Source: a virus | Lineage: Duplodnaviria; Heunggongvirae; Uroviricota; Caudoviricetes | Virus record (IMG/VR): IMGVR_UViG_3300012075_000001 | Location: 1-15,803 of that record | Length of the DNA: 15,803 nucleotides | Reading direction: 5' to 3' (one strand) | Shown: piece by piece, positions 2-14,730 of the stretch | Position numbering within the stretch: the stretch's first letter is position 1 | Layout of the letters: every line of letters begins with the position of its first letter | Made by a program: the position numbers and the translations under genes | The notes under the pieces: model-generated | Database searches by the model: none | What the model was told of the DNA's origin: nothing | What the model saw: the letters and a program-made list of their open reading frames with translations, nothing else

Positions 2-256
2 GAGAACCGTAAACCGTTCTTATCTGGTCATCGTAAATTTTTATTCAATTTACAAGAGACGCAAAGTCCAATCGAAGTGACTTTGGTTAACGGTCAAACC
101 TATACGGGAACTATTCGAACTTCAGATGAAGAGACTATCTCGCTCGAATCTCGAAACGAAAACAGCGATAGCTACACTGTGCGAGTGATTTTTAAACATA
201 ATTTGGTAATGTTCTCACCGATTAACACGGTAACAACTGCGCCAAGACCAAGCTAA
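2..256 (+). CDS. Hfq/Sm(LSm)-fold RNA-chaperone-like protein, 5'-truncated by the window edge (absent from the ORF track)
   Basis: Manual translation of frame 2: ENRKPFLSGHRKFLFNLQETQSPIEVTLVNGQTYTGTIRTSDEETISLESRNENSDSYTVRVIFKHNLVMFSPINTVTTAPRPS*. It has an Sm1-like FL..L......V.LVNG....G.I...D...I.L and an Sm2-like IFKH, parallel to E. coli Hfq [36 protein letters not shown]...VYKHAISTVVP. Stop TAA at 254-256. Confidence 0.75.
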   Translation, partial: ENRKPFLSGHRKFLFNLQETQSPIEVTLVNGQTYTGTIRTSDEETISLESRNENSDSYTVRVIFKHNLVMFSPINTVTTAPRPS

Positions 257-4261: not shown

Positions 4262-4347
4262 TGCAGGCAATCACATCTAGTTCATTTAAACCCCAAGTCG
4301 CTAACTCTAAAATGAGCTTAACGAAACAAGCAAAGAGTAATAAATGA
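4261..4347 (+). CDS. Possible 28-aa translational-coupling micro-ORF
   Basis: MQAITSSSFKPQVANSKMSLTKQAKSNK*. It starts in a TAATG overlap with the upstream stop and ends in an ATGA overlap with the start at 4344, filling the gap exactly. Confidence 0.4.
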   Translation: MQAITSSSFKPQVANSKMSLTKQAKSNK

Positions 4348-4943
4348 AAAATCGTATAGAAACAGTGCCTTTTGTGGATACAGCGATTTATCCCATTGAG
4401 GCTTCAGCGCAGGGCGGGAACGCTTATTATCTTGAGCATTGCGGCGCTTCAGGGTATCGACCAGCTTATGCCTCGTGTTTAAACCGCATACGCGAGATAG
4501 AAGAAGGTAAATCACTTCCATCTGTAGAGTATGGTTGCTCTGCTGCGATATGCAATAACGTTTGTCAGGCATTGACCATGCATCAAGAAGAGAAGCGTAA
4601 AGGTGTGGCGATTTACTACATCAACCGAGTTAAGATGCGCCAAAATACACGTTACAACGCAGCTCAGTACGGTATTAAAATTTCTGAAATTGCGATTAAA
4701 AACGATATCAAAAAGCCGTCTGTAAAACCCGTTGAACCATCTAATCCGTTTGAAGTTGGCAGCATAGCTGATGCAATCAACAGCCGAGTTGCAAAGGAAT
4801 ATCAAGAGGAAAATAAACAATCCGCTTTAAATTCCAGCGATAAACCTTTATCATCACAAACAGATCAGTCAGTACTGACTGTTAGTAAAGGGATGTCATT
4901 AATAGATATTGCAAAAGCAAAGCGACAACTATCAAACGCTTAA
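4344..4943 (+). CDS. Hypothetical protein, Cys-containing N-terminal domain and low-complexity C-terminal tail
   Basis: 199-aa ORF co-directional with its neighbours. Five Cys in HCG...SCL...GCSAAICNNVC. Confidence 0.75.
   Translation: MKNRIETVPFVDTAIYPIEASAQGGNAYYLEHCGASGYRPAYASCLNRIREIEEGKSLPSVEYGCSAAICNNVCQALTMHQEEKRKGVAIYYINRVKMRQNTRYNAAQYGIKISEIAIKNDIKKPSVKPVEPSNPFEVGSIADAINSRVAKEYQEENKQSALNSSDKPLSSQTDQSVLTVSKGMSLIDIAKAKRQLSNA
4863..4884. promoter_or_regulatory. Operator palindrome copy 1 (inside the coding sequence)
   Basis: GATCAGTCAG-TA-CTGACTGTTA, containing the perfect 16-bp palindrome CAGTCAGTACTGACTG (4866-4881). Lies 79 bp upstream of ORF 4964. Confidence 0.6.
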
Positions 4944-4963
4944 TTAATAAATAAAGGTAATTT

Positions 4964-5221
4964 ATGGCTGATTTATCTAACTGTATTAGTCGCCATGTTG
5001 CTGAGGTTAAGCGAATAACAGGCGTCAAGCAAGAAGACATTATCAATGCACTCAAAAGCGTTATAGGCGATGAGTTGGGAATGTTTGCAGCAATAAACCA
5101 TTTAGACGATGCGCAAATCGCAGCAATCGTTGCTGATTTGGCAAAAGGTGTTGAGTTGATAGCTCAGCAGAAAGTTTCAAGCGTAGAGCGCATTAAGCGT
5201 GATTACATGGCCCGTTTCTGA
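4964..5221 (+). CDS. Hypothetical helical protein (85 aa)
   Basis: AAGGT RBS upstream, co-directional, immediately precedes the ligase. Confidence 0.7.
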   Translation: MADLSNCISRHVAEVKRITGVKQEDIINALKSVIGDELGMFAAINHLDDAQIAAIVADLAKGVELIAQQKVSSVERIKRDYMARF

Positions 5222-5249
5222 CGGGTCGTTCTAAAATTTGGAGTAACAA

Positions 5250-6653
5250 ATGGCAACTTTGGAGCCAGTTTTAACGCAAACGTTTAACAGTGACCTTGCA
5301 TGTCAGGCGCTTAATGAAATAGCTGAAGAAAGTTCTAAAAATAAAAAATTGGAAATGGTGAGCCACTATATAAGCAATCCTTTGTTTAAAGAGGTTTGTT
5401 CGCTTGCTTACAACCCATTCCGTATTTTTGGTGTGCTTCCTGAAAAAGACGCGAAGGGCACTGGCGAATTGTGGTTTGATGAAGCAGACACCTTAGAAAT
5501 CATATACGCATTAGAAAAGCGTGAGCTTACAGGTAATGCGGCACGTGAAGCGATTCGTTGTCAGTTGGCCCAATTGAGCGAAAAGTCAGGCGATCTATTT
5601 ATTCGAATTTTGCGTAAAGACTTACGCGCGGGCTTTAGTGAATCAACAATCAACAAAGCGTGCAAAGGCTTAATTCCTGAATTTCCTTATCAACGTTGTT
5701 CTTTGCCCAAAGATGCAAAATTTGACACGTGGACATGGGACAAGGGCGTTTTCTCACAAGAGAAGGCAGATGGAATGTACGCGAACGGCAATAAGGTCAT
5801 CGGTGAGTCGCTTTCATTCGTTTCGCGTCAAGGCTCACAATTCCCTATGGAAGAGTTCCAAGCCATCATAGAAGAAGCGGAGTTGTTACTTCAACCTAAC
5901 TTCCAGTATCACGGTGAACTTCTAGTTGAGCGTGACGGCGTAGAGCTTCCACGTGAGATCGGCAACGGCATTCTTAATAGCGTTCTGAAGGGCGGTAAGT
6001 TTGGTGAAAATGAGCGACCGATTTACAAAGTGTGGGATCTTATCCCGTTAGAAGCCATTGTGCCAAAGGGCGTGTTTAAAGCGCCGTACGCAAATCGTTT
6101 CCGCACATTATTCAACATGGTGAAGGCTGGCAATAATATTCGCATCATTGAGACGCGCATTGTAAATAGCCTAAGCGATGCATATAAGCACTGTGAAGAA
6201 CTTCTCCTAAAAGGGAAGGAGGGAACAGTCATCAAAAATTCAACAGCAATCTGGAAGGACAGCACAAGCAAAGAGCAAATCAAATTAAAGCTTGAGGCTG
6301 ACTGTGAGTTAGAAGTTGTTGCTATCAATGAAGGCAAGACTGGCTCGAAAAATGAAGGGCGGGCAGGGGCGTTAAATTGTAAATCTGCATGTGGTCAATT
6401 AATTGTAGACGTTGCCATTAAGAATGAAAAATTACGTGATGAAGTGGATGCAAACCCTAATGACTGGATTGGTCGCATCATTACGGTACGTTCAAACTCA
6501 GTTTTAAAACCTTCTGCTAGTAGCTCTAATTATTCGCTGTTCTTGCCGCGTATGGTTGAAGCTTGCTATCGCTTAGATAAAACAGTTGCAGACGACTTAG
6601 CACGCATTTATGAGCAGTTCGATAACGCTATTAAAAACGTACAGGTAGGTTAA
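5250..6653 (+). CDS. ATP-dependent DNA ligase, T4 gp30 type
   Basis: Motif I EKADG (adenylated Lys), HGEL, WDLIP, motif IV EGTVIK, motif V KLK, OB-fold with SLFLPR. GGAG RBS. Confidence 0.95.
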   Translation: MATLEPVLTQTFNSDLACQALNEIAEESSKNKKLEMVSHYISNPLFKEVCSLAYNPFRIFGVLPEKDAKGTGELWFDEADTLEIIYALEKRELTGNAAREAIRCQLAQLSEKSGDLFIRILRKDLRAGFSESTINKACKGLIPEFPYQRCSLPKDAKFDTWTWDKGVFSQEKADGMYANGNKVIGESLSFVSRQGSQFPMEEFQAIIEEAELLLQPNFQYHGELLVERDGVELPREIGNGILNSVLKGGKFGENERPIYKVWDLIPLEAIVPKGVFKAPYANRFRTLFNMVKAGNNIRIIETRIVNSLSDAYKHCEELLLKGKEGTVIKNSTAIWKDSTSKEQIKLKLEADCELEVVAINEGKTGSKNEGRAGALNCKSACGQLIVDVAIKNEKLRDEVDANPNDWIGRIITVRSNSVLKPSASSSNYSLFLPRMVEACYRLDKTVADDLARIYEQFDNAIKNVQVG

Positions 6654-6658
6654 TAACA

Positions 6659-7060
6659 ATGGGAAAAATACAAGGGAAACACAAATCTGCTTTGGCGGTA
6701 GTTCTAACTGCAGTATTGGCAGCAGCGGGAATTGCAACTTTTGCACCTTCTACACATGCAGCGGTTGCGGCTCGTTCTTCTTCGGTATCTTCAGCGCGTT
6801 CTGTTTCGGTTTCGCGACCTTCGACAATTCGCTCAGTTTCAACAACGCCAGTGCGAACAAGCTATCGACCTACAGTTAGCAAACCTAAGCCAGCTGTGAC
6901 AAAACCTACAACGCCAGCCCGTACTTCGTATGTGAGTAGTTCAGCCAAAAAAAAGAAGATTACATCTTCCGGCCCTGAATACGATTATTACGAGTTTGAT
7001 GATTGTAAGCCTTACTCAAGCATTACCTTCAATGGCTGGAAATGCCTAGATCGCGACTAA
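6659..7060 (+). CDS. Secreted or periplasmic Ser/Thr/Pro-rich protein
   Basis: Basic N-terminus, hydrophobic ALAVVLTAVLAAAGIATF, THA-A cleavage-like site, long S/T/P/R/K low-complexity region, acidic-aromatic C-terminus with two Cys. Confidence 0.7.
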   Translation: MGKIQGKHKSALAVVLTAVLAAAGIATFAPSTHAAVAARSSSVSSARSVSVSRPSTIRSVSTTPVRTSYRPTVSKPKPAVTKPTTPARTSYVSSSAKKKKITSSGPEYDYYEFDDCKPYSSITFNGWKCLDRD

Positions 7061-7071
7061 AGGATAAAAAT

Positions 7072-7695
7072 ATGATTTTAGTAATTTCAGGAAAAACGTG
7101 CGCTGGCAAATCAACTCTAGCCAATCACTTGATTCAAAATTGTGGTTTTGGCCGTATTGTAACCTGCACAACGCGACAACCGCGTGAAGGCGAAAAGAAC
7201 GGTGTTCACTACCACTTTCTAACGCAAGAGCAGTTCAAGAATGCCATCGATAAGGATGAGTTCATTGAGTTTAATATGCATGGCGGTGCAATGTACGGAG
7301 TGCGTAAAAAAGAAATCATTCAAGCAATGGATGCGCCGTTTGATTCGCTTGTGGTAATTGAGCCTGTAGGTCGTCGTAAGCTCACGAAATACCTTAAAGG
7401 CAATGAAATGCGCTATCTGTCTATTTACTTGGACATAAGCCCAAGCATACAGGCAGAGCGCTTTATGAACCGCATTCAAGCGGCTAAAGCCAGCGAACTT
7501 ACTGATCTCACAGATCGTATGACATCAATGCTTGAAGTTGAACAAGGCTGGTTAAGAGAGTCTACAACGGACGGCTCTTGTGACATGGTGTTTTCATCAT
7601 TTAACAATGTATCTGACTTAAAACATGTTTCAGATACAGTTATGACGCATGTTAAAAAGGCGCTTGAAAATATGGGAAAAGCTAAGGCAGTTTAA
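7072..7695 (+). CDS. Guanylate-kinase-like nucleoside monophosphate kinase
   Basis: P-loop GKTCAGKST; guanylate-kinase signature TTRQPREGEKNGVHYHF...EF...I....FIE...H...YG. Start moved to ATG 7072 (AAGGA RBS) from the track's 7042. Confidence 0.88.
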   Translation: MILVISGKTCAGKSTLANHLIQNCGFGRIVTCTTRQPREGEKNGVHYHFLTQEQFKNAIDKDEFIEFNMHGGAMYGVRKKEIIQAMDAPFDSLVVIEPVGRRKLTKYLKGNEMRYLSIYLDISPSIQAERFMNRIQAAKASELTDLTDRMTSMLEVEQGWLRESTTDGSCDMVFSSFNNVSDLKHVSDTVMTHVKKALENMGKAKAV

Positions 7696-7745
7696 TTAGC
7701 CTAAGTAAAAAGTTCCAAGTTTATCAGCACTCTCTATCTATACTT

Positions 7746-7773
7746 AACTCCATGTAGGCACATGGAGTTTTTT
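7746..7773 (+). promoter_or_regulatory. Terminator-like hairpin that sequesters the RBS of ORF 7775
   Basis: Perfect 10-bp stem AACTCCATGT (7746-7755) / ACATGGAGTT (7760-7769), loop AGGC, then a T-run to 7773. GGAG (7764-7767) sits in the 3' arm, 7 nt before ATG 7775. Confidence 0.65.
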
Positions 7774-7774
7774 C

Positions 7775-8389
7775 ATGCTTTTAAAAGATGTACCAGGCGT
7801 TTTGCCAAGACTAGAAAATTCATTAATTTCAAAAACAGATATGTGGACTTCAGATGTAGATAGCGTCATTCCAGCACAATTTTTGGCATTCAGAACACTC
7901 ATAAAATCTGATTTTCCTGAAGTGGATATTGATCGAGATATTAATTATCTTGTGCGTCAGGTACAGTTTGCAGAGCTTGAAAACGTTTTAACGTCACCTT
8001 TGAGAAATTATATTGAACCTTGCGACGCTCACATGCTTATGAGTGAATTAAAAGAAGGTTTGCAAAAACTTGATCAGACTTATCAGCACGCTTTCTTATT
8101 TGGTATGGAAATCGGTTATTCGGCATTTCAAATCGAAAACATGTCATACCAACAAGCTATTAGAGGATGCCCTAAGTCAGCGCTGGCAACGAGTATTATT
8201 AATTCATTGGTGCCGAGTTCACGGACAATAAATGCCTTCTGGAAAGTAGAAGATGGCCAACATGTCCGATTAGATGATCTTGAGTCTGAAATTTACCGCG
8301 CTTTTGGTAAAACATGGCGTGAGTTGTTATCCGGGTACTCGCGATTAATTGCGGACGAAATTGACGTTGATTTTGTAATGTATCTATAG
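7775..8389 (+). CDS. Hypothetical protein, possibly a degenerate tyrosine-recombinase-like fold
   Basis: 204-aa ORF with GGAG RBS. The segment YQHAFLFGMEIGYSAFQIENMSY mimics the box I pattern of tyrosine recombinases but lacks the catalytic Arg. The fold call is weak. Confidence 0.7.
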   Translation: MLLKDVPGVLPRLENSLISKTDMWTSDVDSVIPAQFLAFRTLIKSDFPEVDIDRDINYLVRQVQFAELENVLTSPLRNYIEPCDAHMLMSELKEGLQKLDQTYQHAFLFGMEIGYSAFQIENMSYQQAIRGCPKSALATSIINSLVPSSRTINAFWKVEDGQHVRLDDLESEIYRAFGKTWRELLSGYSRLIADEIDVDFVMYL

Positions 8390-8446
8390 CAATCGGCTAA
8401 AAAGTGCTAGAAATAGATCTGAGATAATGAGCTTACGGTAACCCAA

Positions 8447-8809
8447 ATGCTGCAAATCAGATTGGACGTTCTAGCTGCGGCCCGTCAGTTGGTAACGGCT
8501 TACGGGCTAGTATTTAAGGCTGAGTATTCACTTATTCAAAATCATGTAGATGGCGGCATCTTAGTTGAAATAAGCGCTAAGACTCCACTTACTACCTCGC
8601 CGATTGTTCATATTAGATATGAGCGAGAAGGCACCAATATTACTGTCAAATTGCCTATGGCTTATCATGACATAACTGGCTCATATTCTGACGATTACAA
8701 ATTCTTTTCAGAATGGGTTAATCGCCTATTTAATGAAGATGAATTTGTTAGAGCAAATAAAGAGTTCTGGATTAAAAAAGGTCGAATTGATGGCAATAAG
8801 TTGTTTTAG
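8447..8809 (+). CDS. Hypothetical protein (120 aa)
   Basis: Co-directional ORF, last before the bidirectional terminator. A possible extended -10 (TGaGATAAT, 8420-8428) lies upstream. No clear RBS. Confidence 0.6.
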   Translation: MLQIRLDVLAAARQLVTAYGLVFKAEYSLIQNHVDGGILVEISAKTPLTTSPIVHIRYEREGTNITVKLPMAYHDITGSYSDDYKFFSEWVNRLFNEDEFVRANKEFWIKKGRIDGNKLF

Positions 8810-8881
8810 TATTAACTTAATCACATAAATGCTTTAAAATATTAAACTTAAATTAATAATTCATTCTGCGTTTGAAAGTTT

Positions 8882-8918
8882 AAAAGGCCCTGCATTGTTC
8901 AGGGCCTTTATTTTTTTT
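8882..8918. terminator. Bidirectional intrinsic terminator between convergent units
   Basis: 10-bp stem AAAGGCCCTG (8883-8892) / CAGGGCCTTT (8900-8909), 7-nt loop, T8 at 8911-8918 on the + strand and an A-run on the left. Confidence 0.85.
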
Positions 8919-9330
8919 AGACTTTATAACCCATTTTTTTGAGGGTTTTTTCTGTGCTTTCCATTAACGCTTTAGTCACGATTTGAGTCATGTCGACTTT
9001 CTTAGGACTGCTTAGCTGTTCGATCGCAACAATAAACTTGAGTCTTAAAAACAATTCAGCGGGTAAGTTTGCTGAAAATTTTTGAGTAGCAATCATCAAC
9101 TCCTCTTCTGACATTGTTGTTCTTTGGCGCCACGGTGCAACGTCATTTAAAAAGTTAGTCGCTTCAGCTGCTTTTTGCTGAACTTCAACCACTTCCTCTT
9201 CCACTTCAACGGCTTTTGGTGCTTGAGTTTGAGGCTGAGCTGCTACAGGTGCAGAGTTCAAAATTGCTTCTTTAGCGTCGTTATTGCGAGGTGTACGCGT
9301 AGGCAATGGTGCGTTCTTATCGTTTGCCAT
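8917..9330 (-). CDS. Type Ib partition centromere-binding protein (ParG/omega-like, C-terminal ribbon-helix-helix)
   Basis: Overlaps the parA stop. Disordered Ala/Pro/Glu-rich N-terminus; C-terminal QKFSANLPAELFLRLK...MTQIVTKAL fits a strand-helix-helix pattern. Start moved to ATG 9330 (GAGGAG upstream). Confidence 0.75.
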   Translation of the reverse strand: MANDKNAPLPTRTPRNNDAKEAILNSAPVAAQPQTQAPKAVEVEEEVVEVQQKAAEATNFLNDVAPWRQRTTMSEEELMIATQKFSANLPAELFLRLKFIVAIEQLSSPKKVDMTQIVTKALMESTEKTLKKMGYKV

Positions 9331-9994
9331 TTTCAATAATCTCCTCAAGTAACTGTTCAAATTCTTTGATTGCAATGCGGTTGTTTACGTCTACTTCCAT
9401 TTCGGTAATGCCGATGTTGTTTCGATAAGCACGGCTATATGGCATGCGTAAACGCATAATGGTTTGTAAACGTGGGGCTTCATTCTCGATAGCTTCAAGG
9501 GCCTTTAATGTGTCGCGTAGATCAACCGAGTTGTCTGCCGCAGGCGCTTGAGTAATTACTGGATGTACTACGATTGGCTTTTCGTTAGAAGGCAAACGCA
9601 CTTCTTCGTTAATTAAATCAACCAGATCCAACAGCGTATAAAGACCTTTGAGATCTTGAGCTCCAACTTTTAAAGGGGCAACAATTACATCAGCCGCCAA
9701 TAAAGCCGAACGCATTTCAGCCGAGTCATATCCGGGAGTGTCAATTACAACGTACTCGTATTCCTCGTTTAGACGACGAGCTTCTTCTTCAATATTTCCA
9801 GTTAAATGAAAGAATTTACCGTTTTCTACTTCGTTTTCGGCTTCTCTTGCTTGGCTCCATTCGAAAGAGCCTTTGTTAGCATCTAGGTCAATACCGATAA
9901 CAGTGTTACCTTTTTGGTGCAGCGCGGCCACGGTAGATGTGGCTAGAGTTGTTTTGCTCACGCCGCCTTTTGTATTGGCGTACACGATAATCAT
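9317..9994 (-). CDS. parA: Type Ib ParA (ParF-like) partition ATPase
   Basis: Deviant Walker A KGGVSKTT at the extreme N-terminus (no N-terminal HTH), IDLDAN, Walker B VVIDTPG, AADVIVAP. Start moved to ATG 9994 (AAGGAA RBS), giving 225 aa. Confidence 0.92.
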   Translation of the reverse strand: MIIVYANTKGGVSKTTLATSTVAALHQKGNTVIGIDLDANKGSFEWSQAREAENEVENGKFFHLTGNIEEEARRLNEEYEYVVIDTPGYDSAEMRSALLAADVIVAPLKVGAQDLKGLYTLLDLVDLINEEVRLPSNEKPIVVHPVITQAPAADNSVDLRDTLKALEAIENEAPRLQTIMRLRMPYSRAYRNNIGITEMEVDVNNRIAIKEFEQLLEEIIENGKR

Positions 9995-10017
9995 CAAAAT
10001 TTCCTTAGTTAAGTTGG

Positions 10018-10088
10018 CATAAACGCCTATAAAACAGAAACATTCTAGTAAACAGAACAGGCGTTGTAAACTAGACGCACTAGAAAAC
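10018..10088. repeat. Four imperfect ~18-bp direct repeats; candidate centromere/par operator
   Basis: cataaacgcctataaaac / agaaacattctagtaaac / agaacaggcgttgtaaac / tagacgcactagaaaac. The terminal AAAC ends at 10035, 10053, 10071 and 10088 (spacing 18, 18, 17), between the par promoter and the parA RBS. Confidence 0.5.
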
Positions 10089-10098
10089 AAGACCATTT

Positions 10099-10128
10099 GT
10101 TATAAAGTTCATGTACTGTATTTGTAAA
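10099..10128 (-). promoter_or_regulatory. Sigma70-type promoter of the par operon
   Basis: On the - strand: -35 TTTACA (10128-10123) or TTACAA (10127-10122), 18- or 17-bp spacer, -10 TATAAC (10104-10099). Confidence 0.6.
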
Positions 10129-10141
10129 ACACCATTAGATC

Positions 10142-10195
10142 ATATTACCGTATTACCATACGCCCATACACACACATGATATTACGGTAATACGG
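10142..10195. repeat. Two palindromic TATTAC-N-GTA(A/T)TA boxes forming both a direct and an inverted repeat
   Basis: ATATTACCGTATTACC (10142-10157) and ATATTACGGTAATACG (10179-10194) match at 13/16. CCGTATTACC (10148-10157) and GGTAATACGG (10186-10195) are a perfect 10-bp inverted repeat. Confidence 0.6.
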
Positions 10196-10783
10196 CTAGT
10201 CGTTAAGTTTCTCGGCAATACTGCGAAGTAACTCAGGGTCGGATGCAAAGTACTTTTGAGTTGTAAGGATTGAGCTGTGGCCCATAAGTTGTTGAATAGA
10301 GTAGATATCCCCGCCCTTTCGTATTAAACGCGTTGCAAATGAACGTCTTCCTGAATGGCTGGTTGCGTGAATGCCTGCTTTTTTATAGCAGTTATTTATC
10401 ATCGTACACATGGTGTTTGGAGAGAATGGACCACCCTTCTGAGATAAAAATAATGGCGCATTGGGGTCTTTGGGTCGTTCCTTTTTTATGTATTCTTCGA
10501 TTAAATCTCTTGCAATTGGATTGACTAAAAAGACTTCCCGATACTTATTGCCTTTCGTAATTTTGCCAAGTAATCGGACAATATCTTTTAGTTTATCCTT
10601 TCTAATGTCATACACATCACCAACGGTCAACATTGATAATTCTTTGGCTCGCAAACCTAGAAAATGAGAAAAATACAAAACACATTTGTTTCTTAATGCA
10701 TTGACGCCCTTTTGAGTGGCCAATGTTACTTCTAAATCATCTTCCGAGATATACGGGGCCTTTCCGGTTGTTGTTCTTGCCAT
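10196..10783 (-). CDS. Short tyrosine recombinase/resolvase (catalytic domain only, FimB-like size)
   Basis: Full catalytic set: GLRAKE (R), KGNK (K), HSGRRS (HxxR), MGHS (H), TQKY (Y). About 195 aa from ATG 10783; the track's TTG 10819 has no RBS and overlaps the repeat site. Confidence 0.92.
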   Translation of the reverse strand: MARTTTGKAPYISEDDLEVTLATQKGVNALRNKCVLYFSHFLGLRAKELSMLTVGDVYDIRKDKLKDIVRLLGKITKGNKYREVFLVNPIARDLIEEYIKKERPKDPNAPLFLSQKGGPFSPNTMCTMINNCYKKAGIHATSHSGRRSFATRLIRKGGDIYSIQQLMGHSSILTTQKYFASDPELLRSIAEKLND

Positions 10784-10800
10784 AAGTAGACCAAATAATT

Positions 10801-10900
10801 TTTTATTACATTTTTCCAAAATGGAAAAGGATAAGAAAATAGTCTACCACAGGCTGAAAAATAAAAAATGTAATAAAAGATACATTTTATTATATTTTTT
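10801..10900. repeat. Candidate recombinase binding/crossover site: 16-6-16 inverted repeat plus a third arm copy
   Basis: AAAAAATGTAATAAAA (10863-10878) - GATACA - TTTTATTATATTTTTT (10885-10900), one mismatch between arms. TTTTATTACATTTTT (10801-10815) is an exact reverse complement of 10864-10878. Confidence 0.65.
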
Positions 10901-10917
10901 CTGGACGAAGCAATCAA
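10889..10917 (-). promoter_or_regulatory. Sigma70 promoter of the recombinase
   Basis: On the - strand: TTGATT (10917-10912), 17 bp, TATAAT (10894-10889). The -10 lies inside one arm of the inverted repeat. Confidence 0.7.
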
Positions 10918-11079
10918 AGTGCGTCATCATCTGACGTAGACAGATCTTTATATTCAAAGGGGTATTTTCGACTATGGATTTAATTGGTAAGCTATGCTTA
11001 ACTTGATTGTGTAACGTTTTCAAGTTTCGAAAAGTAAGAGGAAGTGAATATGGATATAGATTGCCAAATGATTGAAAAC

Positions 11080-11111
11080 AAAAAAATAATGCCCGACTAT
11101 AAGCGGGCATT
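11080..11111 (-). terminator. Intrinsic terminator of the repressor gene
   Basis: 8-bp stem AATGCCCG (11088-11095) / CGGGCATT (11104-11111), followed on the - strand by A and T7 (11086-11080); 34 bp after the repressor stop. Confidence 0.8.
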
Positions 11112-11145
11112 TAATGAGAGAGCAAATATTGGGCTAGGCGCTGTT

Positions 11146-11613
11146 TTACAGGTCGTTTTTGCCCAAGTATGCATTTTCTTTTTGGGACTCCATTTCATCA
11201 CGATGCTTGATCGTTTCTGCTTCCATTTCCTTAGCAAGCTCAACAAACTTATCATGCGTATCACCGTACAGATTAGGGTCTTCCTTAGTCGTACTGCGAA
11301 GCACTTTAATGATGTTAACCTCGTTTGGTGTTAAAGGGGTTTGGTTAGTGATACTTTCAATCACATCGATTAAATCAGGCATGTATTCAGTTAGAACGCG
11401 CACAAGAAAGCGAGTAGGGTTTTCGCCTAGAGCCAAAGCAGTCGGCTTGATCTTATCAATAGGCAAGCGAGTTTCGCCGCTCTTGATCATTGATAGTACG
11501 TTAGGACGTTTGAAGCCAATTTCCTCAGCAATCTCACGCTGGCTCTTTGGAGAATTATCGATCAGGTCGGTGAGAAATTCTGCCACAGTCATATTGTTGC
11601 GATTTTTGGCCAT
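11146..11613 (-). CDS. XRE/Cro-CI-family HTH transcriptional repressor
   Basis: N-terminal HTH SQREIAEEIGFKRPNVLSMIKSGETRLP...ALALG. No peptidase S24 domain visible. Start moved to ATG 11613 (GGAG 6 nt upstream). Confidence 0.88.
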   Translation of the reverse strand: MAKNRNNMTVAEFLTDLIDNSPKSQREIAEEIGFKRPNVLSMIKSGETRLPIDKIKPTALALGENPTRFLVRVLTEYMPDLIDVIESITNQTPLTPNEVNIIKVLRSTTKEDPNLYGDTHDKFVELAKEMEAETIKHRDEMESQKENAYLGKNDL

Positions 11614-11695
11614 TTGCCTCTCCAAATACAGAGTTAAATTTTTCCTATGATGAGTTGCAATTCAGTTTGTAATAATCCAGAACATGAGATTCTAT

Positions 11696-11717
11696 ATTTA
11701 CTCAGAACTGACTGATT
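11696..11717. promoter_or_regulatory. Operator palindrome copy 2 (repressor leader)
   Basis: ATTTACTCAG-AA-CTGACTGATT, just downstream of a minus-strand TATAAT at 11738-11733. Confidence 0.65.
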
Positions 11718-11766
11718 TTGAATTACAGCACTATTATAGGTGGTGGGGGACTAATTTTATAGAAAA

Positions 11767-11788
11767 AATCAGTCACTCGTGAATTATA
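11767..11788. promoter_or_regulatory. Operator palindrome copy 3 (repressor promoter region)
   Basis: AATCAGTCAC-TC-GTGAATTATA, overlapping a second minus-strand TATAAT at 11788-11783. Confidence 0.6.
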
Positions 11789-11924
11789 TACGCCCAAGTT
11801 TACAAACTAGAGGCCGCGAATGCAAAGCGTATTCGATTGATTGGGCTAATTTTTTCCAGATTTTTTGTTATTTTTTTTATTCAAAAATAGGAAAAAACTA
11901 ATTTTTGGCAGTGCTAGAAACTCC

Positions 11925-12012
11925 AAAATTAACATTTTAAAATTAACTGTTTATATAATCTGCATAAATTTTAACAGGTTATATAAACTTAACTTAACTT
12001 ACAAAACTTAAC
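11925..12012. repeat. AT-rich repeat cluster (TTAAC family)
   Basis: TTAACTGTTTATATAA (11943-11958) and TTAACAGGTTATATAA (11971-11986) match at 14/16, 28 bp apart. AAAATTAAC occurs twice (11925, 11939); AACTT occurs three times in tandem (11986-12000). A plus-strand TATAAT lies at 11954-11959. Confidence 0.5.
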
Positions 12013-12051
12013 GAACGAAATGTTTTGTAATTATCAAATGAGGAGAAATGA

Positions 12052-12105
12052 ATGAATACATACAACAACTGGCTTATAAATGTTCAAACAGTCACTTCTG
12101 ACTGA
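12052..12105 (+). CDS. Possible 17-aa leader peptide
   Basis: Strong GAGGAG (12040-12045) 6 nt before ATG 12052. Translation MNTYNNWLINVQTVTSD*; the stop lies inside operator copy 4. Confidence 0.3.
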   Translation: MNTYNNWLINVQTVTSD

Positions 12106-12107
12106 TT
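12086..12107. promoter_or_regulatory. Operator palindrome copy 4
   Basis: AAACAGTCAC-TT-CTGACTGATT, upstream of a plus-strand TATAAT (12137-12142) that precedes ORF 12216. Confidence 0.7.
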
Positions 12108-12215
12108 TTATTAAAAGCTTTTGATCGAACCGTAACTATAATATACGGGGCTGAAATGATGAGACGTATATTAATAGCCTCTTCAAAATCTTTATAAATC
12201 AGAATGGTGATATAA

Positions 12216-12416
12216 ATGACTGTGACATTGAATGAACAATTCCAAAGTGTAGATTTGGACGAACTTGCTGAACTTTTAGAAAAAACGGAAGGTAGTCAAA
12301 CCTTATTAGATGACGGCTTCTATACCGTGAAACGCTATAACCATCTGAATTTCGGTGCAATTGAGGTAGTTAATACCTGTGCGCCTACAAGTATAGTGCG
12401 CGTGGTAAATCCATAA
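12216..12416 (+). CDS. Small acidic hypothetical protein (66 aa)
   Basis: GGTG RBS upstream. First gene of the rightward unit, divergent from the repressor. Confidence 0.7.
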   Translation: MTVTLNEQFQSVDLDELAELLEKTEGSQTLLDDGFYTVKRYNHLNFGAIEVVNTCAPTSIVRVVNP

Positions 12417-12444
12417 TTTTTATAAGAATATCTTTTCCGCTGTT

Positions 12445-12492
12445 AGCAAGAATGAGGCGGTTATAAAGTCGCCCTCTTGCTTAAGCTTTTTT
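12445..12492 (+). terminator. Possible terminator/attenuator between ORF 12216 and the cobT-like gene
   Basis: Interrupted stem AGCAAGA (12445-12451) / TCTTGCT (12475-12481) with an inner GGCGG/TCGCC pairing, followed after a few bases by T6. Confidence 0.35.
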
Positions 12493-12508
12493 AAGCCTCA
12501 CAAACCTC

Positions 12509-12537
12509 TATACACTCCACTTCTAAAAAGTCATAAT
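12509..12537 (+). promoter_or_regulatory. Possible sigma70 promoter of the cobT-like gene
   Basis: TATACA (12509-12514), 17 bp, CATAAT (12532-12537). Operator copy 5 lies immediately downstream of the predicted start site. Confidence 0.45.
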
Positions 12538-12549
12538 ACGGTCATTAAT

Positions 12550-12571
12550 AATCAGTCAGTACTGATTGAAT
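12550..12571. promoter_or_regulatory. Operator palindrome copy 5
   Basis: AATCAGTCAG-TA-CTGATTGAAT, 16 bp before the cobT-like ATG. Shares an exact 19-mer (12547-12565) with copy 6 (14625-14643). Confidence 0.75.
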
Positions 12572-12587
12572 TTGATAAGGGTCGTAT

Positions 12588-14591
12588 ATGAATAACCGTA
12601 TTGCAAATTTGCGCAAAGCTATAGTAGCTATTACTAATGCACTCATCGAGAAAAAAATTGAAGTAACTCAAATAGGTATGGACGCCTATGTGAGATCGAA
12701 TAGTGAAGGTATTCCCGTTGCTGTAAACCTTCCTTACCTTCCTGATAATGCATCTGAAGAACTCATTCAAGCAATTCAAGGATTCTTAGATCATGAGGTT
12801 GGGCACATTCTTTTTTCTGACTTCAAAGCATTAGCTATTCGCAACCCGATGTTAAAGGGCTTAACAAACATATTAGAAGATGCCCGTATTGAAAAATGTA
12901 TGGCTCAACGCTTCAAGGGTTCAGGTTCTAACCTTGACCATACGGCACATTTCTTTTTGGAGGAAATGATTACTCCAAAATTTAAAGAAGTAATGGCCCA
13001 GCCTGACGTAGATGAAACAAAGGTGATGGGCATCTTGGCAACACCTTATCTTCGTAGCCTTTCAGGTCAATCGACTTTTGAGTTTTATATGCGCGACAAG
13101 ATGCATTTGTTGCCAAACATACACGCGGCTATCAAACACCTTGCACCGCCGCTGCAAGCAATGCAGTCGTCAAAGGACGCGGTTCGCTTAGCTAAAGAAA
13201 TCTATGAAGCTTTAAAAAATCCAGAAGAGGAAAAACAGGACAATCAAGACCAGGAGAACGAAGATTGTGAGCAACAAGGGAATGGACAATCTGACGACGA
13301 GCAAGAACAGCAAGATGGCTCAAGCGGCGGAGGCTCTGAAGGCGATGGTGAGTCTGATGGTGCCGGAGACTCTTCAGGTGATGCTGAGGGCAAAGAGAGT
13401 CAAGGAAAGGGCGGTAAAGGCAACAAACCTCAAGATGCAGACGATAATGCCGAATCAGACGATAAAGGTGAACGCCACAAAAATAAGTCTGACAAATCGA
13501 ATGGTACGAGCGACCGTGATGCAGGCGACGAGTCTGGCGACGGCGACGCTCAGAAAGGGGAAGAAAAGAAGGATGTAAATCACAAGCTCAACCTTGATGC
13601 AGATTCTATTCTAGGAGAAATCGACAAAGAGTCTGCAAATGACTTTGACTCGGCATTTGCGGTTCAGCTAAGTAATGAAGCCAAAGATTTTGCATGCGAT
13701 GCGCCTTATCTTGTGTACACGAATAAACACGATGAGATCGAAACGCTAAGTGTCGGACGCGGCTTTAAACAATCGTTTATGGACGAATTAGACACGGCAA
13801 CTAAGCAAGTTACAGGTACGATCCAAAAAGACCTTGAGCGTCTTATGGCTGCTAGATCTGCTGCTGTTTGGGAGAATGGATTACGACGCGGCAAAATCAA
13901 TCAAGCCTCCCTTTCTCGACTTGCCATCAAAGATGAACGAATTTTCCGTCGCAAGCAGGAAAACCGCTCGAAAGATGTCGCAGTGACTTTACTGATTGAC
14001 TGCTCTGGCTCAATGAGGGGTAAGCGTATTCACACAGCCGCACAAGCTTCTTATGCTATGTCTAGCGTGTTAGATCGGATCAATATTGTTCATGAAGTAA
14101 TTGGGTTTACTACCAAGCACGGCGAAGAACATAACAAAAACGCACGTAGCTTTAATCACAACGGGAAGGAAGTTTACTATTCGCGAATGGAAGGTCTGTA
14201 CATGCCAATTATCAAAGGGTTTACAGAACGATTGACGCTTGATAACCGCAACCGTTTTGCATGGCTTCCTCACGCTACTTTCTTCAATACGAATGTTGAT
14301 GGTGAATGTCTTCAAATTGCAGCCCAGCGCCTTAGTCAGCGTAAAGAGGCGCGTAAAATCATTATGGTTTTAAGTGATGGTAATCCTAATGGTCATGGCC
14401 CAACTCCAACATTGAACAAACACCTCAAAGCAACCGTTGCTGACCTAACACGTTCAGGATTTGAAGTTATCGGAATTGGTATCGATACCGACTCTGTAAA
14501 ACAATTCTATCCTAAAAATGTCGCATTAAAATCTGTGGCAGACTTACCGCATACAGTGATTGGTGAGCTTCGCGCCCTATTACTCAAGTAA
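12588..14591 (+). CDS. CobT-like protein: N-terminal HExxH peptidase-like domain, acidic Gly-rich linker, C-terminal vWA
   Basis: DHEVGH followed by NILEDARIE; D/E/G/S/K/Q low-complexity linker; MIDAS LIDCSGSM, GFTT, VLSDG. Adjacent to a MoxR/CobS ATPase. Confidence 0.88.
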   Translation: MNNRIANLRKAIVAITNALIEKKIEVTQIGMDAYVRSNSEGIPVAVNLPYLPDNASEELIQAIQGFLDHEVGHILFSDFKALAIRNPMLKGLTNILEDARIEKCMAQRFKGSGSNLDHTAHFFLEEMITPKFKEVMAQPDVDETKVMGILATPYLRSLSGQSTFEFYMRDKMHLLPNIHAAIKHLAPPLQAMQSSKDAVRLAKEIYEALKNPEEEKQDNQDQENEDCEQQGNGQSDDEQEQQDGSSGGGSEGDGESDGAGDSSGDAEGKESQGKGGKGNKPQDADDNAESDDKGERHKNKSDKSNGTSDRDAGDESGDGDAQKGEEKKDVNHKLNLDADSILGEIDKESANDFDSAFAVQLSNEAKDFACDAPYLVYTNKHDEIETLSVGRGFKQSFMDELDTATKQVTGTIQKDLERLMAARSAAVWENGLRRGKINQASLSRLAIKDERIFRRKQENRSKDVAVTLLIDCSGSMRGKRIHTAAQASYAMSSVLDRINIVHEVIGFTTKHGEEHNKNARSFNHNGKEVYYSRMEGLYMPIIKGFTERLTLDNRNRFAWLPHATFFNTNVDGECLQIAAQRLSQRKEARKIIMVLSDGNPNGHGPTPTLNKHLKATVADLTRSGFEVIGIGIDTDSVKQFYPKNVALKSVADLPHTVIGELRALLLK

Positions 14592-14627
14592 ACAATGGCA
14601 AAGATAGTCAGTTGGGGTTATTTAAAT

Positions 14628-14649
14628 AATCAGTCAGTACTGACTATCT
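14628..14649. promoter_or_regulatory. Operator palindrome copy 6
   Basis: AATCAGTCAG-TA-CTGACTATCT in the cobT-cobS intergenic region, 81 bp upstream of the ATPase start. Confidence 0.75.
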
Positions 14650-14730
14650 TTTCCTGAGAGTTATTAGTATTATTTACGCATATTCTAAAGACAGTAATTA
14701 GTCTAGTTTTATCTTTGTGAGATTTACAAA

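Follow-up and report, generated by a model that had tools for sequence, protein, structure and literature searches.

The C1 repressor of the plasmid prophage P1 has 22 operators (PMC8546580), and repressors of the mycobacteriophage L5 type end elongation at numerous sites, the stoperators, which are asymmetric and are read by a monomer using two domains (PMC9283540). For the phage-plasmids of the SSU5/AB superfamily, which are often found in clinical Acinetobacter, Klebsiella, Escherichia, Salmonella and Yersinia, in some cases with resistance genes aboard, we found no description in the literature of how lysogeny is held. The plasmid pABTJ2 was said to lack a repressor (PMC4411360). In the E. 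coli phage-plasmid Cyrano, the putative master repressor is given as CYRAN_45, whose transcription in lysogens is 10-fold above the prophage background; ciprofloxacin induces Cyrano 39-fold (PMC9928086). Here we analyze the first 15,803 nucleotides (hereafter the window) of a viral record (IMGVR_UViG_3300012075_000001) that is 109,742 bp long and has direct terminal repeats. One of the genes in the window encodes an orthologue of CYRAN_45, a protein of the XRE family. The window contains copies of a 22-bp palindrome with the core AGTCA-N4-TGACT, which is likely to be the operator of this XRE-type repressor (11146-11613, minus strand) of the phage-plasmid.

The closest public relatives of the element are Acinetobacter baumannii plasmids of 105-114 kb, with ~78% nucleotide identity across the region tested. 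The element is a member of the Acinetobacter 'AB' phage-plasmid group, which has similarities to the SSU5 supercommunity (PMC7969092). A preliminary description of this DNA had called it SSU5-like, which is right as to the alliance with that supercommunity but not as to the group, since it belongs to AB and not to SSU5 itself. In the following, G000 is the present 109,742-bp genome, and G001-G012 and L020 are the related genomes or contigs compared with it.

A palindrome dispersed over the genome

The features of the window on which the argument turns are these.

4863..4884, plus strand: putative operator copy 1, GATCAGTCAGTACTGACTGTTA; weight-matrix score 32.7
11146..11613, minus strand: XRE-family helix-turn-helix (HTH) protein of 155 aa, the proposed repressor, from PHROG 8, AlphaFold2 and Foldseek
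11696..11717, minus strand: putative operator copy 2, XRE-proximal, AATCAGTCAGTTCTGAGTAAAT (minus strand); core with one mismatch
11733..11738, minus strand: candidate -10 box TATAAT of the XRE gene, a low-confidence prediction, between copies 2 and 3
11767..11788, minus strand: putative operator copy 3, weak, TATAATTCACGAGTGACTGATT (minus strand)
12086..12107, plus strand: putative operator copy 4, AAACAGTCACTTCTGACTGATT; 108 nt upstream of the 66-aa open reading frame (ORF) 12216-12416
12550..12571, plus strand: putative operator copy 5, AATCAGTCAGTACTGATTGAAT; ends 16 nt before the cobT-like ATG at 12588
14628..14649, plus strand: putative operator copy 6, AATCAGTCAGTACTGACTATCT; between the cobT-like stop (14591) and the cobS-like start (14731)

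Six palindromes had been listed in the preliminary description, and their letters and coordinates all proved correct. Five of them match the consensus AATCAGTCAG-N2-CTGACTGATT with 2-3 mismatches, where 0.01 would be expected by chance, and at least five matches to the 22-mer consensus were found in 0 of 200 shuffles. The sixth, at 11767-11788, is present and conserved in relatives but is weaker, having 5 mismatches to the 22-mer. Five of the six are intergenic and copy 1 is inside the 3' end of ORF 4344-4943; copies 5 and 6 have an exact 19-mer in common (AATAATCAGTCAGTACTGA). The two XRE-proximal sites were said to flank TATAAT boxes, and one such box (11738-11733, minus strand) does lie between them, while the other sites precede ORF 12216, the cobT-like gene, the cobS-like gene and the ligase unit as described.

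The six-copy observation understates the case because the motif is genome-wide. There are 24 copies of its core in the 109,742-bp genome, the best consensus of the 22-bp palindrome is AATCAGTCAGTACTGACTGATT, and a weight-matrix scan of the whole replicon gave 29 sites that outscore the best one found in 30 shuffled genomes. Shuffles were used here and a reversed-pattern control was dropped, as it is not independent: the site contains a CAGTCAGT repeat that the reversed pattern hits too (24 control hits). All but one of the 29 sites are non-coding (28/29; binomial p = 5e-27), non-coding being the 10% of the genome outside ORFs of at least 55 aa. As judged from position and from the annotation of a relative, the sites precede the helicase-primase unit, the ligase unit, cobT, cobS and the genes for SSB, SbcCD and ribonucleotide reductase, and likewise thyX-dut, the terminase-portal junction, the capsid gene, tail genes, holin-endolysin and the XRE gene. 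None of the 29 precedes parA, the recombinase gene (int), the doc-type toxin-antitoxin pair or repB. A regulon of lytic replication genes had been proposed; the replication genes do carry sites, but so do structural and lysis genes, with ~29 sites genome-wide.

Three of the window's copies are in the switch region between the XRE gene and the 66-aa ORF. Copy 2 is located between the XRE ATG, from which it is 83-104 nt away, and the candidate XRE -10 box, and its right half is the -35-like CTGACT of a candidate rightward promoter; the A. baumannii relatives carry the same imperfect site. Copy 3 is the upstream one relative to XRE, with its centre 71 bp from that of copy 2. Its 14-bp core on the minus strand, ATTCA-CGAG-TGACT, departs from the motif at one position. 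Its weight-matrix score of 15.1 is under the shuffle maximum of 21.7, and the A. baumannii relatives have this copy at the corresponding place. The TATAAT at 11738-11733, a low-confidence call from sequence, would start XRE transcription ~10 nt before the site at 11717-11696; an alternative XRE promoter candidate is TTCACG-18-TAAAAT at 11783-11754. Copy 1 is ~80 nt upstream of an 85-aa ORF and the ligase unit, is conserved in NZ_CP026705.1, and has its equivalent intragenic place occupied in the distant relative L020. Copy 5 is in a leader, downstream of the candidate promoter TATACA-17-CATAAT (12509-12537), and a site orthologous to it is found in many distant relatives ~500-700 nt away on the far side of the XRE gene. 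The right end of copy 6 is fused to the -10-like TATCTT at 14645-14650, and a lineage-specific dyad sits at the same cobT-cobS junction in pJN2-26, Cyrano and NZ_CP016299.1.

Comparison with NZ_CP026705.1 showed all 29 sites at orthologous positions. Of the 290 cells in the half-site columns, 286 are identical (98.6%), while the flanking intergenic DNA is ~88% identical and the central positions 6-7 are 72-83% identical. The central spacer is thus where the substitutions occur, the pattern that a dimer contacting two half-sites would give, and the sites form conserved footprints. The core is symmetric, but the flanks are not: the upstream flank ATC matches in 50/57 cells, against 30/57 for its mirror GAT downstream (p = 7e-5). 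The distant relative G001, where most genes are on the other strand, has a like asymmetry: the flank ATA matches in 45/51 against 22/51 (p = 2e-6). In our reading the downstream half overlaps -10 boxes, -35 boxes and ribosome-binding sites and so is free to drift.

The XRE protein and its family

The XRE protein is a divergent HTH regulator of the XRE/Cro-CI type. It matches PHROG 8 'transcriptional regulator' (E 2.8e-9), and Pfam HTH_3 is matched by 40 of 66 family members at E up to 0.01. An AlphaFold2 model built from a 66-homologue alignment (pLDDT 95) shows a five-helix XRE domain followed by a helical C-terminal domain; we took this model, since the single-sequence fold was poor (pLDDT 53). 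The five-helix HTH domain spans residues 1-77 and has its recognition helix at about 38-45 (NVLSMIKS), and residues 80-152 are predicted to form a helical dimerisation domain. Foldseek matches of the model include HigA, 434 Cro, P22 c2, C-proteins (C.AhdI) and DdrO, with ~61-64 residues aligning at an rmsd of 1.7-2.0 to 434 Cro, P22 c2 and C.AhdI. The best solved sequence relative is Rco of pLS20 (8bny; E 3.9e-5 over residues 8-76). It had been noted that no autocleavage domain is visible, and this stands: Pfam gave no S24 peptidase match, and the C-terminal half is all-helical in the model.

The protein is predicted to form a symmetric dimer. The homodimer prediction scored 0.65 and the best control 0.00 (partner pLDDT 81), and three runs agreed in at least 91% of contacts, with the predicted interface in the C-terminal domain. 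At that mark the calibration set holds 20/30 solved one-chain pairs and 1/23 solved single chains, counts that are only rough here because the alignment was our own.

An exhaustive HMMER search for the family gave 1223 hits. By tblastn it is found on 1008 plasmids, the hosts being Klebsiella (343), Escherichia (230), Acinetobacter (154), Enterobacter (92), Yersinia (63) and Salmonella (49), and it is also found on many viral and metagenomic contigs of 100-112 kb. The XRE gene is syntenic with cobT, cobS and the integrase gene in Cyrano, in Klebsiella phage pJN2-26 and in a distant 103-kb contig; XRE, cobT-like, cobS-like, integrase, ligase and dnaE genes are syntenic in Cyrano, pJN2-26, L020 and NZ_CP016299.1. 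The related loci were searched with a six-sequence alignment. Among 78 non-redundant XRE-homologue loci, 16 carry a site in the 300 nt before the gene when up to one mismatch is allowed, compared with 0.64 expected, and all 16 sites have one mismatch and none is perfect, the same as in the window.

Operator classes and recognition helices in relatives

In the four genomes so tested (G000, NZ_CP026705.1, G001, G002) AGTCA-N4-TGACT is by far the commonest 5-N4-5 dyad. It has 10-26 copies each in NZ_CP026705.1, G001, G002, G003, G007, G008, G009, G010 and G012, and L020 is a tenth carrier, with 4 copies in the 20 kb examined; we estimate the expectation at ~0.1 per genome from 4^-10 per position. 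The compared genomes of this class are ~105-112 kb with a G+C of 0.43-0.59. Their XRE proteins are 36-50% identical overall, the close A. baumannii relative excepted, and the recognition helix nevertheless keeps the form KPN[VIM][IL][ST]M[IL]K.

Seven genomes with other helix types have 0-3 copies of AGTCA-N4-TGACT. In four of these seven (pJN2-26, Cyrano, G006 and NZ_CP016299.1) different dyads are dispersed on the same plan, namely AGTAA-GCGC-TTACT, GGTAA-GTAC-TTACC and TAGGTA-N6-TACCTA. The dyad of pJN2-26 (15 copies) and Cyrano (7 copies) is ATAGGTAAGTACTTACCTAT, with the helix N[PA]N[IN]LSLIK, and its copies include those at the phages' own XRE promoter and at the cobT-cobS junction. G006, with the helix AHNNISMLK, has ~20 copies of TAGGTA-N6-TACCTA. 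The A. baumannii element NZ_CP016299.1, a phage-plasmid of the size of pABTJ2, has ~28 dispersed copies of ATATT-AGTAAGCGCTTACT-AATAAT and none of AGTCA-N4-TGACT; the helix of its XRE protein, which is 32% identical to that of the window, is NQNMVSFIVRGK, with a turn shorter by one residue. In G004 and G005 (helix type AHNNISM) simple enumeration gave no clearly dispersed dyad.

When aligned on the dyad, the operator classes differ at symmetric positions in both half-sites. The pair NZ_CP016299.1 and G001 is informative, as the core proteins of the two are about equally diverged from those of the present genome (DnaB 57 and 54%, TerL 75 and 77%, major capsid protein 72 and 66%, respectively), and the operator changed only where the recognition helix changed. 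This co-variation supports, but does not prove, that the XRE protein is the reader of the sites. Both operator classes are found in A. baumannii, and NZ_CP016299.1 would represent a second immunity type in the same host species.

Promoter geometry and alternative readings

The sites take several positions relative to promoter elements. In five to seven of them the core is fused to a -10 box (TGACTATACT), with the centre near -18.5 (the TATACT class); five copies have the exact fusion AGTCAGTACTGACTATACT with weak -35 elements, and core position 14 is where -10-like hexamers are most frequent. One class of the sites in G001 and G002 abuts TTGCAT-17-TATCAT with the dyad centre near -41.5. A subset of the G001 sites (104022, 74976, 75762, 4679) is nested in a larger inverted repeat (GTCAGGATA...TATCCTGAC) and is followed by good sigma-70-type promoters TTGCAT-17-TATCAT. 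Nearly all sites of NZ_CP016299.1 are followed by AATAAT, and no conserved -35 was seen there. Several sites end 5-20 nt before a start codon, which is too tight for a downstream promoter; an example of a tight gap with a site is the 39-nt terminase-portal junction. This variety favours repression rather than activation, as far as sequence can tell, since repressors tolerate variable positions and activators do not. The XRE gene, a part of the maintenance block, points away from the first lytic unit, and the maintenance genes have no sites.

Two further regulatory genes of the genome enter the comparison of readings.

G000:C1:15961-16644: 227-aa sigma-70-family factor, ~160 nt past the window end, directly after the cobS-like gene
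G000:C1:59114-59452: second small HTH protein of 113 aa, Sigma70_r4_2/HTH_24-like, PHROG 323 'transcriptional regulator, D5-like'

Several points weigh against an XRE-type repressor acting at these sites. The link between XRE and the sites is correlative, as shared ancestry ties helix and operator together, and the motif could be tracked just as well by some other phage protein that evolves fast. Pfam matches of the window's XRE protein are below the cut-off (HTH_19, 19 bits against 30.2; HTH_3, 17.8 bits against 23). The sigma factor could be a second regulatory layer. Promoter predictions are weak throughout, many sites have only a weak -35, and in a promoter consensus scan of 11500-12700 promoter-like sites were no commoner than in shuffles. 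The -41.5 class in the relatives is at the classical class II activator position, and the subset with a fixed palindrome and -10 box resembles activator-dependent P1 late promoters. In those promoters (Lpa) a -10 box has an inverted repeat just upstream that replaces the -35.

These last points are what would be seen if the palindrome were an activator site in phage promoters, of the Lpa or class II type, at which the bound dimer, of XRE or another protein, would turn lytic promoters on, or if the protein were bifunctional like lambda CI. The five exact AGTCAGTACTGACTATACT fusions, the hexamer peak at position 14, the dyads abutting TTGCAT-17-TATCAT and the AATAAT rule of NZ_CP016299.1 all fit such a site. 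We nevertheless regard activation as unlikely, as it needs a fixed geometry, whereas that relative to -10 boxes, -35 boxes and start codons varies within one genome, and the sites just before an ATG leave no space for a downstream promoter. Early replication genes carry sites as late genes do, and the XRE orthologue is expressed in lysogeny, when the lytic genes are silent (PMC9928086).

Somewhat less likely still is that the operators are real but are read by another phage-encoded DNA-binding protein, XRE having a narrower role. Besides the correlative nature of the XRE link, the genome offers candidates: further HTH proteins, the sigma-70-family factor and ParB-like proteins. The sigma factor matches PHROG 351 'RNA polymerase sigma factor' (E 1.3e-6) and Pfam Sigma70_r2 below threshold, and its NZ_CP016299.1 orthologue is annotated as a sigma-70 family sigma factor. 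As a reader of the motif it was rejected: a 5-N4-5 dyad whose lineage changes are symmetric suits a dimer and not -35/-10 recognition. No homologue of the 113-aa HTH protein was detectable in G001, G002 or pJN2-26, although the motif is common to G001 and G002. A scan of ten small conserved proteins, a part of all the conserved ones, gave no HTH in Pfam, the only matches of DNA-binding type being a ParB N-terminal domain and a sub-threshold sigma match. By contrast, each lineage has the XRE protein; there is a site at the XRE gene, and the operator class goes with the recognition helix of the protein.

It is very improbable that the palindrome acts as an RNA hairpin in processing, stability or termination, in the manner of repetitive extragenic palindromes. 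The full 22-mer can fold (consensus, -9.7 kcal/mol), the sites are intergenic with a flank asymmetry that follows the direction of transcription, and a consensus scan called the site at 12086 terminator-like. However, the real copies are weak (-3 to -6.6 kcal/mol), the ATC of the left flank is conserved and its pairing partner GAT is not, and sites are also found upstream of divergent genes, where there is no one-sense transcription. Each copy retains the same half-site letters, and the deviations are single mismatches that are never compensated, which implies sequence recognition rather than an RNA or DNA hairpin. A general attenuator layer, made of hairpins after the sites, was also considered and rejected, as downstream structure is not enriched (p = 0.44).

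A host transcription factor as the binder is barely credible: nothing specific speaks for it beyond the fact that many phages borrow host regulators, whereas two A. baumannii phage-plasmids use AGTCA-N4-TGACT and AGTAA-GCGC-TTACT, respectively, which points to a reader encoded by the element and excludes a host factor, and the AGTCA dyad is common to phages of G+C 0.43-0.59.

Separately, terminator-like hairpins with U-runs were observed directly after operator/-10 fusions at G000:C1 33063, 36504, 38515, 79675 and 83368. The one at 38515 has no same-strand gene upstream to terminate. These five hairpins may be leader attenuators.

Neighbouring genes and other observations

The plus-strand genes of the window encode an Hfq-like protein, a DnaB-like helicase, a primase, an ATP-dependent ligase and a guanylate kinase. 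They are followed by a minus-strand maintenance block of ParA, a small tyrosine recombinase and the XRE gene, and after this block the plus strand carries the 66-aa ORF, the cobT-like gene and the cobS-like gene. The gene for the Hfq-like protein (Pfam Hfq, E 1.1e-7; window 2-256, plus strand) is directly upstream of that for the DnaB-like helicase, and this unit is preceded by the operator site 109296 at the opposite end of the record. Divergent from XRE, in the place that a cro gene would take, is the 66-aa ORF 12216-12416 (plus strand), with conserved counterparts in Cyrano, pJN2-26, L020 and NZ_CP016299.1. Pfam gave no match for it, its PHROG (8838) is of unknown function, and a weak ribbon-helix-helix structural lead was the strongest obtained. 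Between the XRE promoter region and the site at 12086 there are ~250 bp of very A+T-rich DNA (window 11830-12085) that hold nothing but a doubtful 48-aa ORF.

Outside the window, one ORF of 4102 aa occupies G000:C1:92282-104590 in the tail region, and its NZ_CP026705.1 orthologue is annotated as a phage tail protein. NZ_CP026705.1 has an IS26-bounded insert (17544-24159) that adjoins the ribonucleotide reductase alpha-subunit gene and carries aph(3')-Ia and mph(E)-msr(E). A tRNA search of the whole genome found none, and a megablast search of the phage collection gave no match.

Discussion

From the sites with their dispersal and conservation, the sites at the XRE gene, the co-variation of helix and operator, and the predicted dimer, we infer that the XRE protein is the binder, as the preliminary description had proposed, and that its effect is repressive. 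A dimer held by the helical C-terminal domain would bind through the N-terminal HTH domains to ~29 operators in nearly every intergenic gap before lytic genes, that is, those for replication, nucleotide metabolism, head, tail and lysis. Some operators lie on promoter elements, where the -35/-10 spacer or the start site would be covered; in short leaders and tight junctions the bound dimer would be a roadblock. In the plasmid (lysogenic) state one protein could silence the whole lytic programme in this way, leaving the site-free parA, int, toxin-antitoxin and repB genes out of its reach. The silencing of lytic genes had likewise been proposed before; the lysogenic expression of the Cyrano orthologue and the placement of the sites argue for it. 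The two sites that bracket the XRE promoter would give autoregulation, which is consistent with sites in the gene's own promoter region both here and in many relatives (the 16 of 78 loci) and is to be taken as probable rather than observed. Induction would need another factor, for example an antirepressor, because the XRE protein has no autocleavage domain.

A wider reading is conceivable, though we would not put it at even chances: one conserved XRE-type family with a mutable dyad, (N)GTNN-N4-NNAC(N), may be the master immunity system of the SSU5/AB superfamily, with helix-operator pairs defining heteroimmune groups and the dimer acting as both occluder and roadblock. If so, it would apply to a superfamily of more than 1000 sequenced plasmids, including the Klebsiella pKpn-, Salmonella pHCM2/SSU5-, Yersinia pestis pMT1- and Acinetobacter AB-type elements, and heteroimmune groups could coexist within one host species. 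A defined repressor-operator pair would explain silencing and induction and predict mutual immunity among the elements, and such pairs would be an orthogonal repressor-operator set for testing how XRE recognition helices read DNA.

The literature search agrees with the earlier statement that an operator of such elements has not been described, as no paper was found with either the operator or the motif string. Among known systems, those of P1 and L5 come nearest in plan. P1 is likewise a plasmid prophage with one repressor and many operators over ~100 kb and no clustered switch. The P1-like dispersal that had been suggested is borne out by ~29 sites over 109.7 kb. Like C1, the XRE protein has no autocleavage domain, so that induction would in both cases need another factor. 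C1 binds its operator as a monomer, and neither Pfam nor PHROGs gave a C1-family match for the XRE protein. The C1 operator is an asymmetric 17-mer (ATTGCTCTAATAAATTT; PMC8546580), whereas that proposed here is a 22-bp dyad; also unlike in P1, the sites directly precede structural and lysis genes. The P1 late promoters resemble the AGTCAGTACTGACTATACT class, but differ in that the geometry here is not uniform, early genes have sites, and the orthologue of the proposed binder is expressed in lysogeny.

The proteins nearest in fold, Rco (PDB 8BNY), 434 Cro/CI, P22 c2, HigA and DdrO, have the N-terminal five-helix XRE domain in common with the present protein and resemble it in combining the HTH with a C-terminal oligomerisation part and in using dyad operators. 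The C-terminal helical domain has no clear solved counterpart, and Rco has a p53-like tetramerisation domain (PMC9986798). The operators of these proteins are clustered at one or two promoters, whereas those of the phage-plasmid are dispersed genome-wide.

In this dispersal there is a likeness with L5/cluster A gp71, which also has ~30 sites in short intergenic gaps genome-wide. Stoperators show an orientation bias relative to transcription; the present sites, whose core is symmetric, may have a comparable bias in the better-conserved upstream flank. The junction sites suggest, by analogy with L5 stoperators (PMC9283540), a roadblock action, and several sites appear to be placed where only an elongation block makes sense. 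L5 gp71 reads an asymmetric site as a monomer, whereas a dyad and a predicted dimer are found here, and a profile search of solved structures gave no relationship between the XRE protein and L5-type repressors. The design is a known one, so far undescribed for this widespread plasmid family, and the system works in principle like those of P1 C1 and L5 while being a member of neither family.

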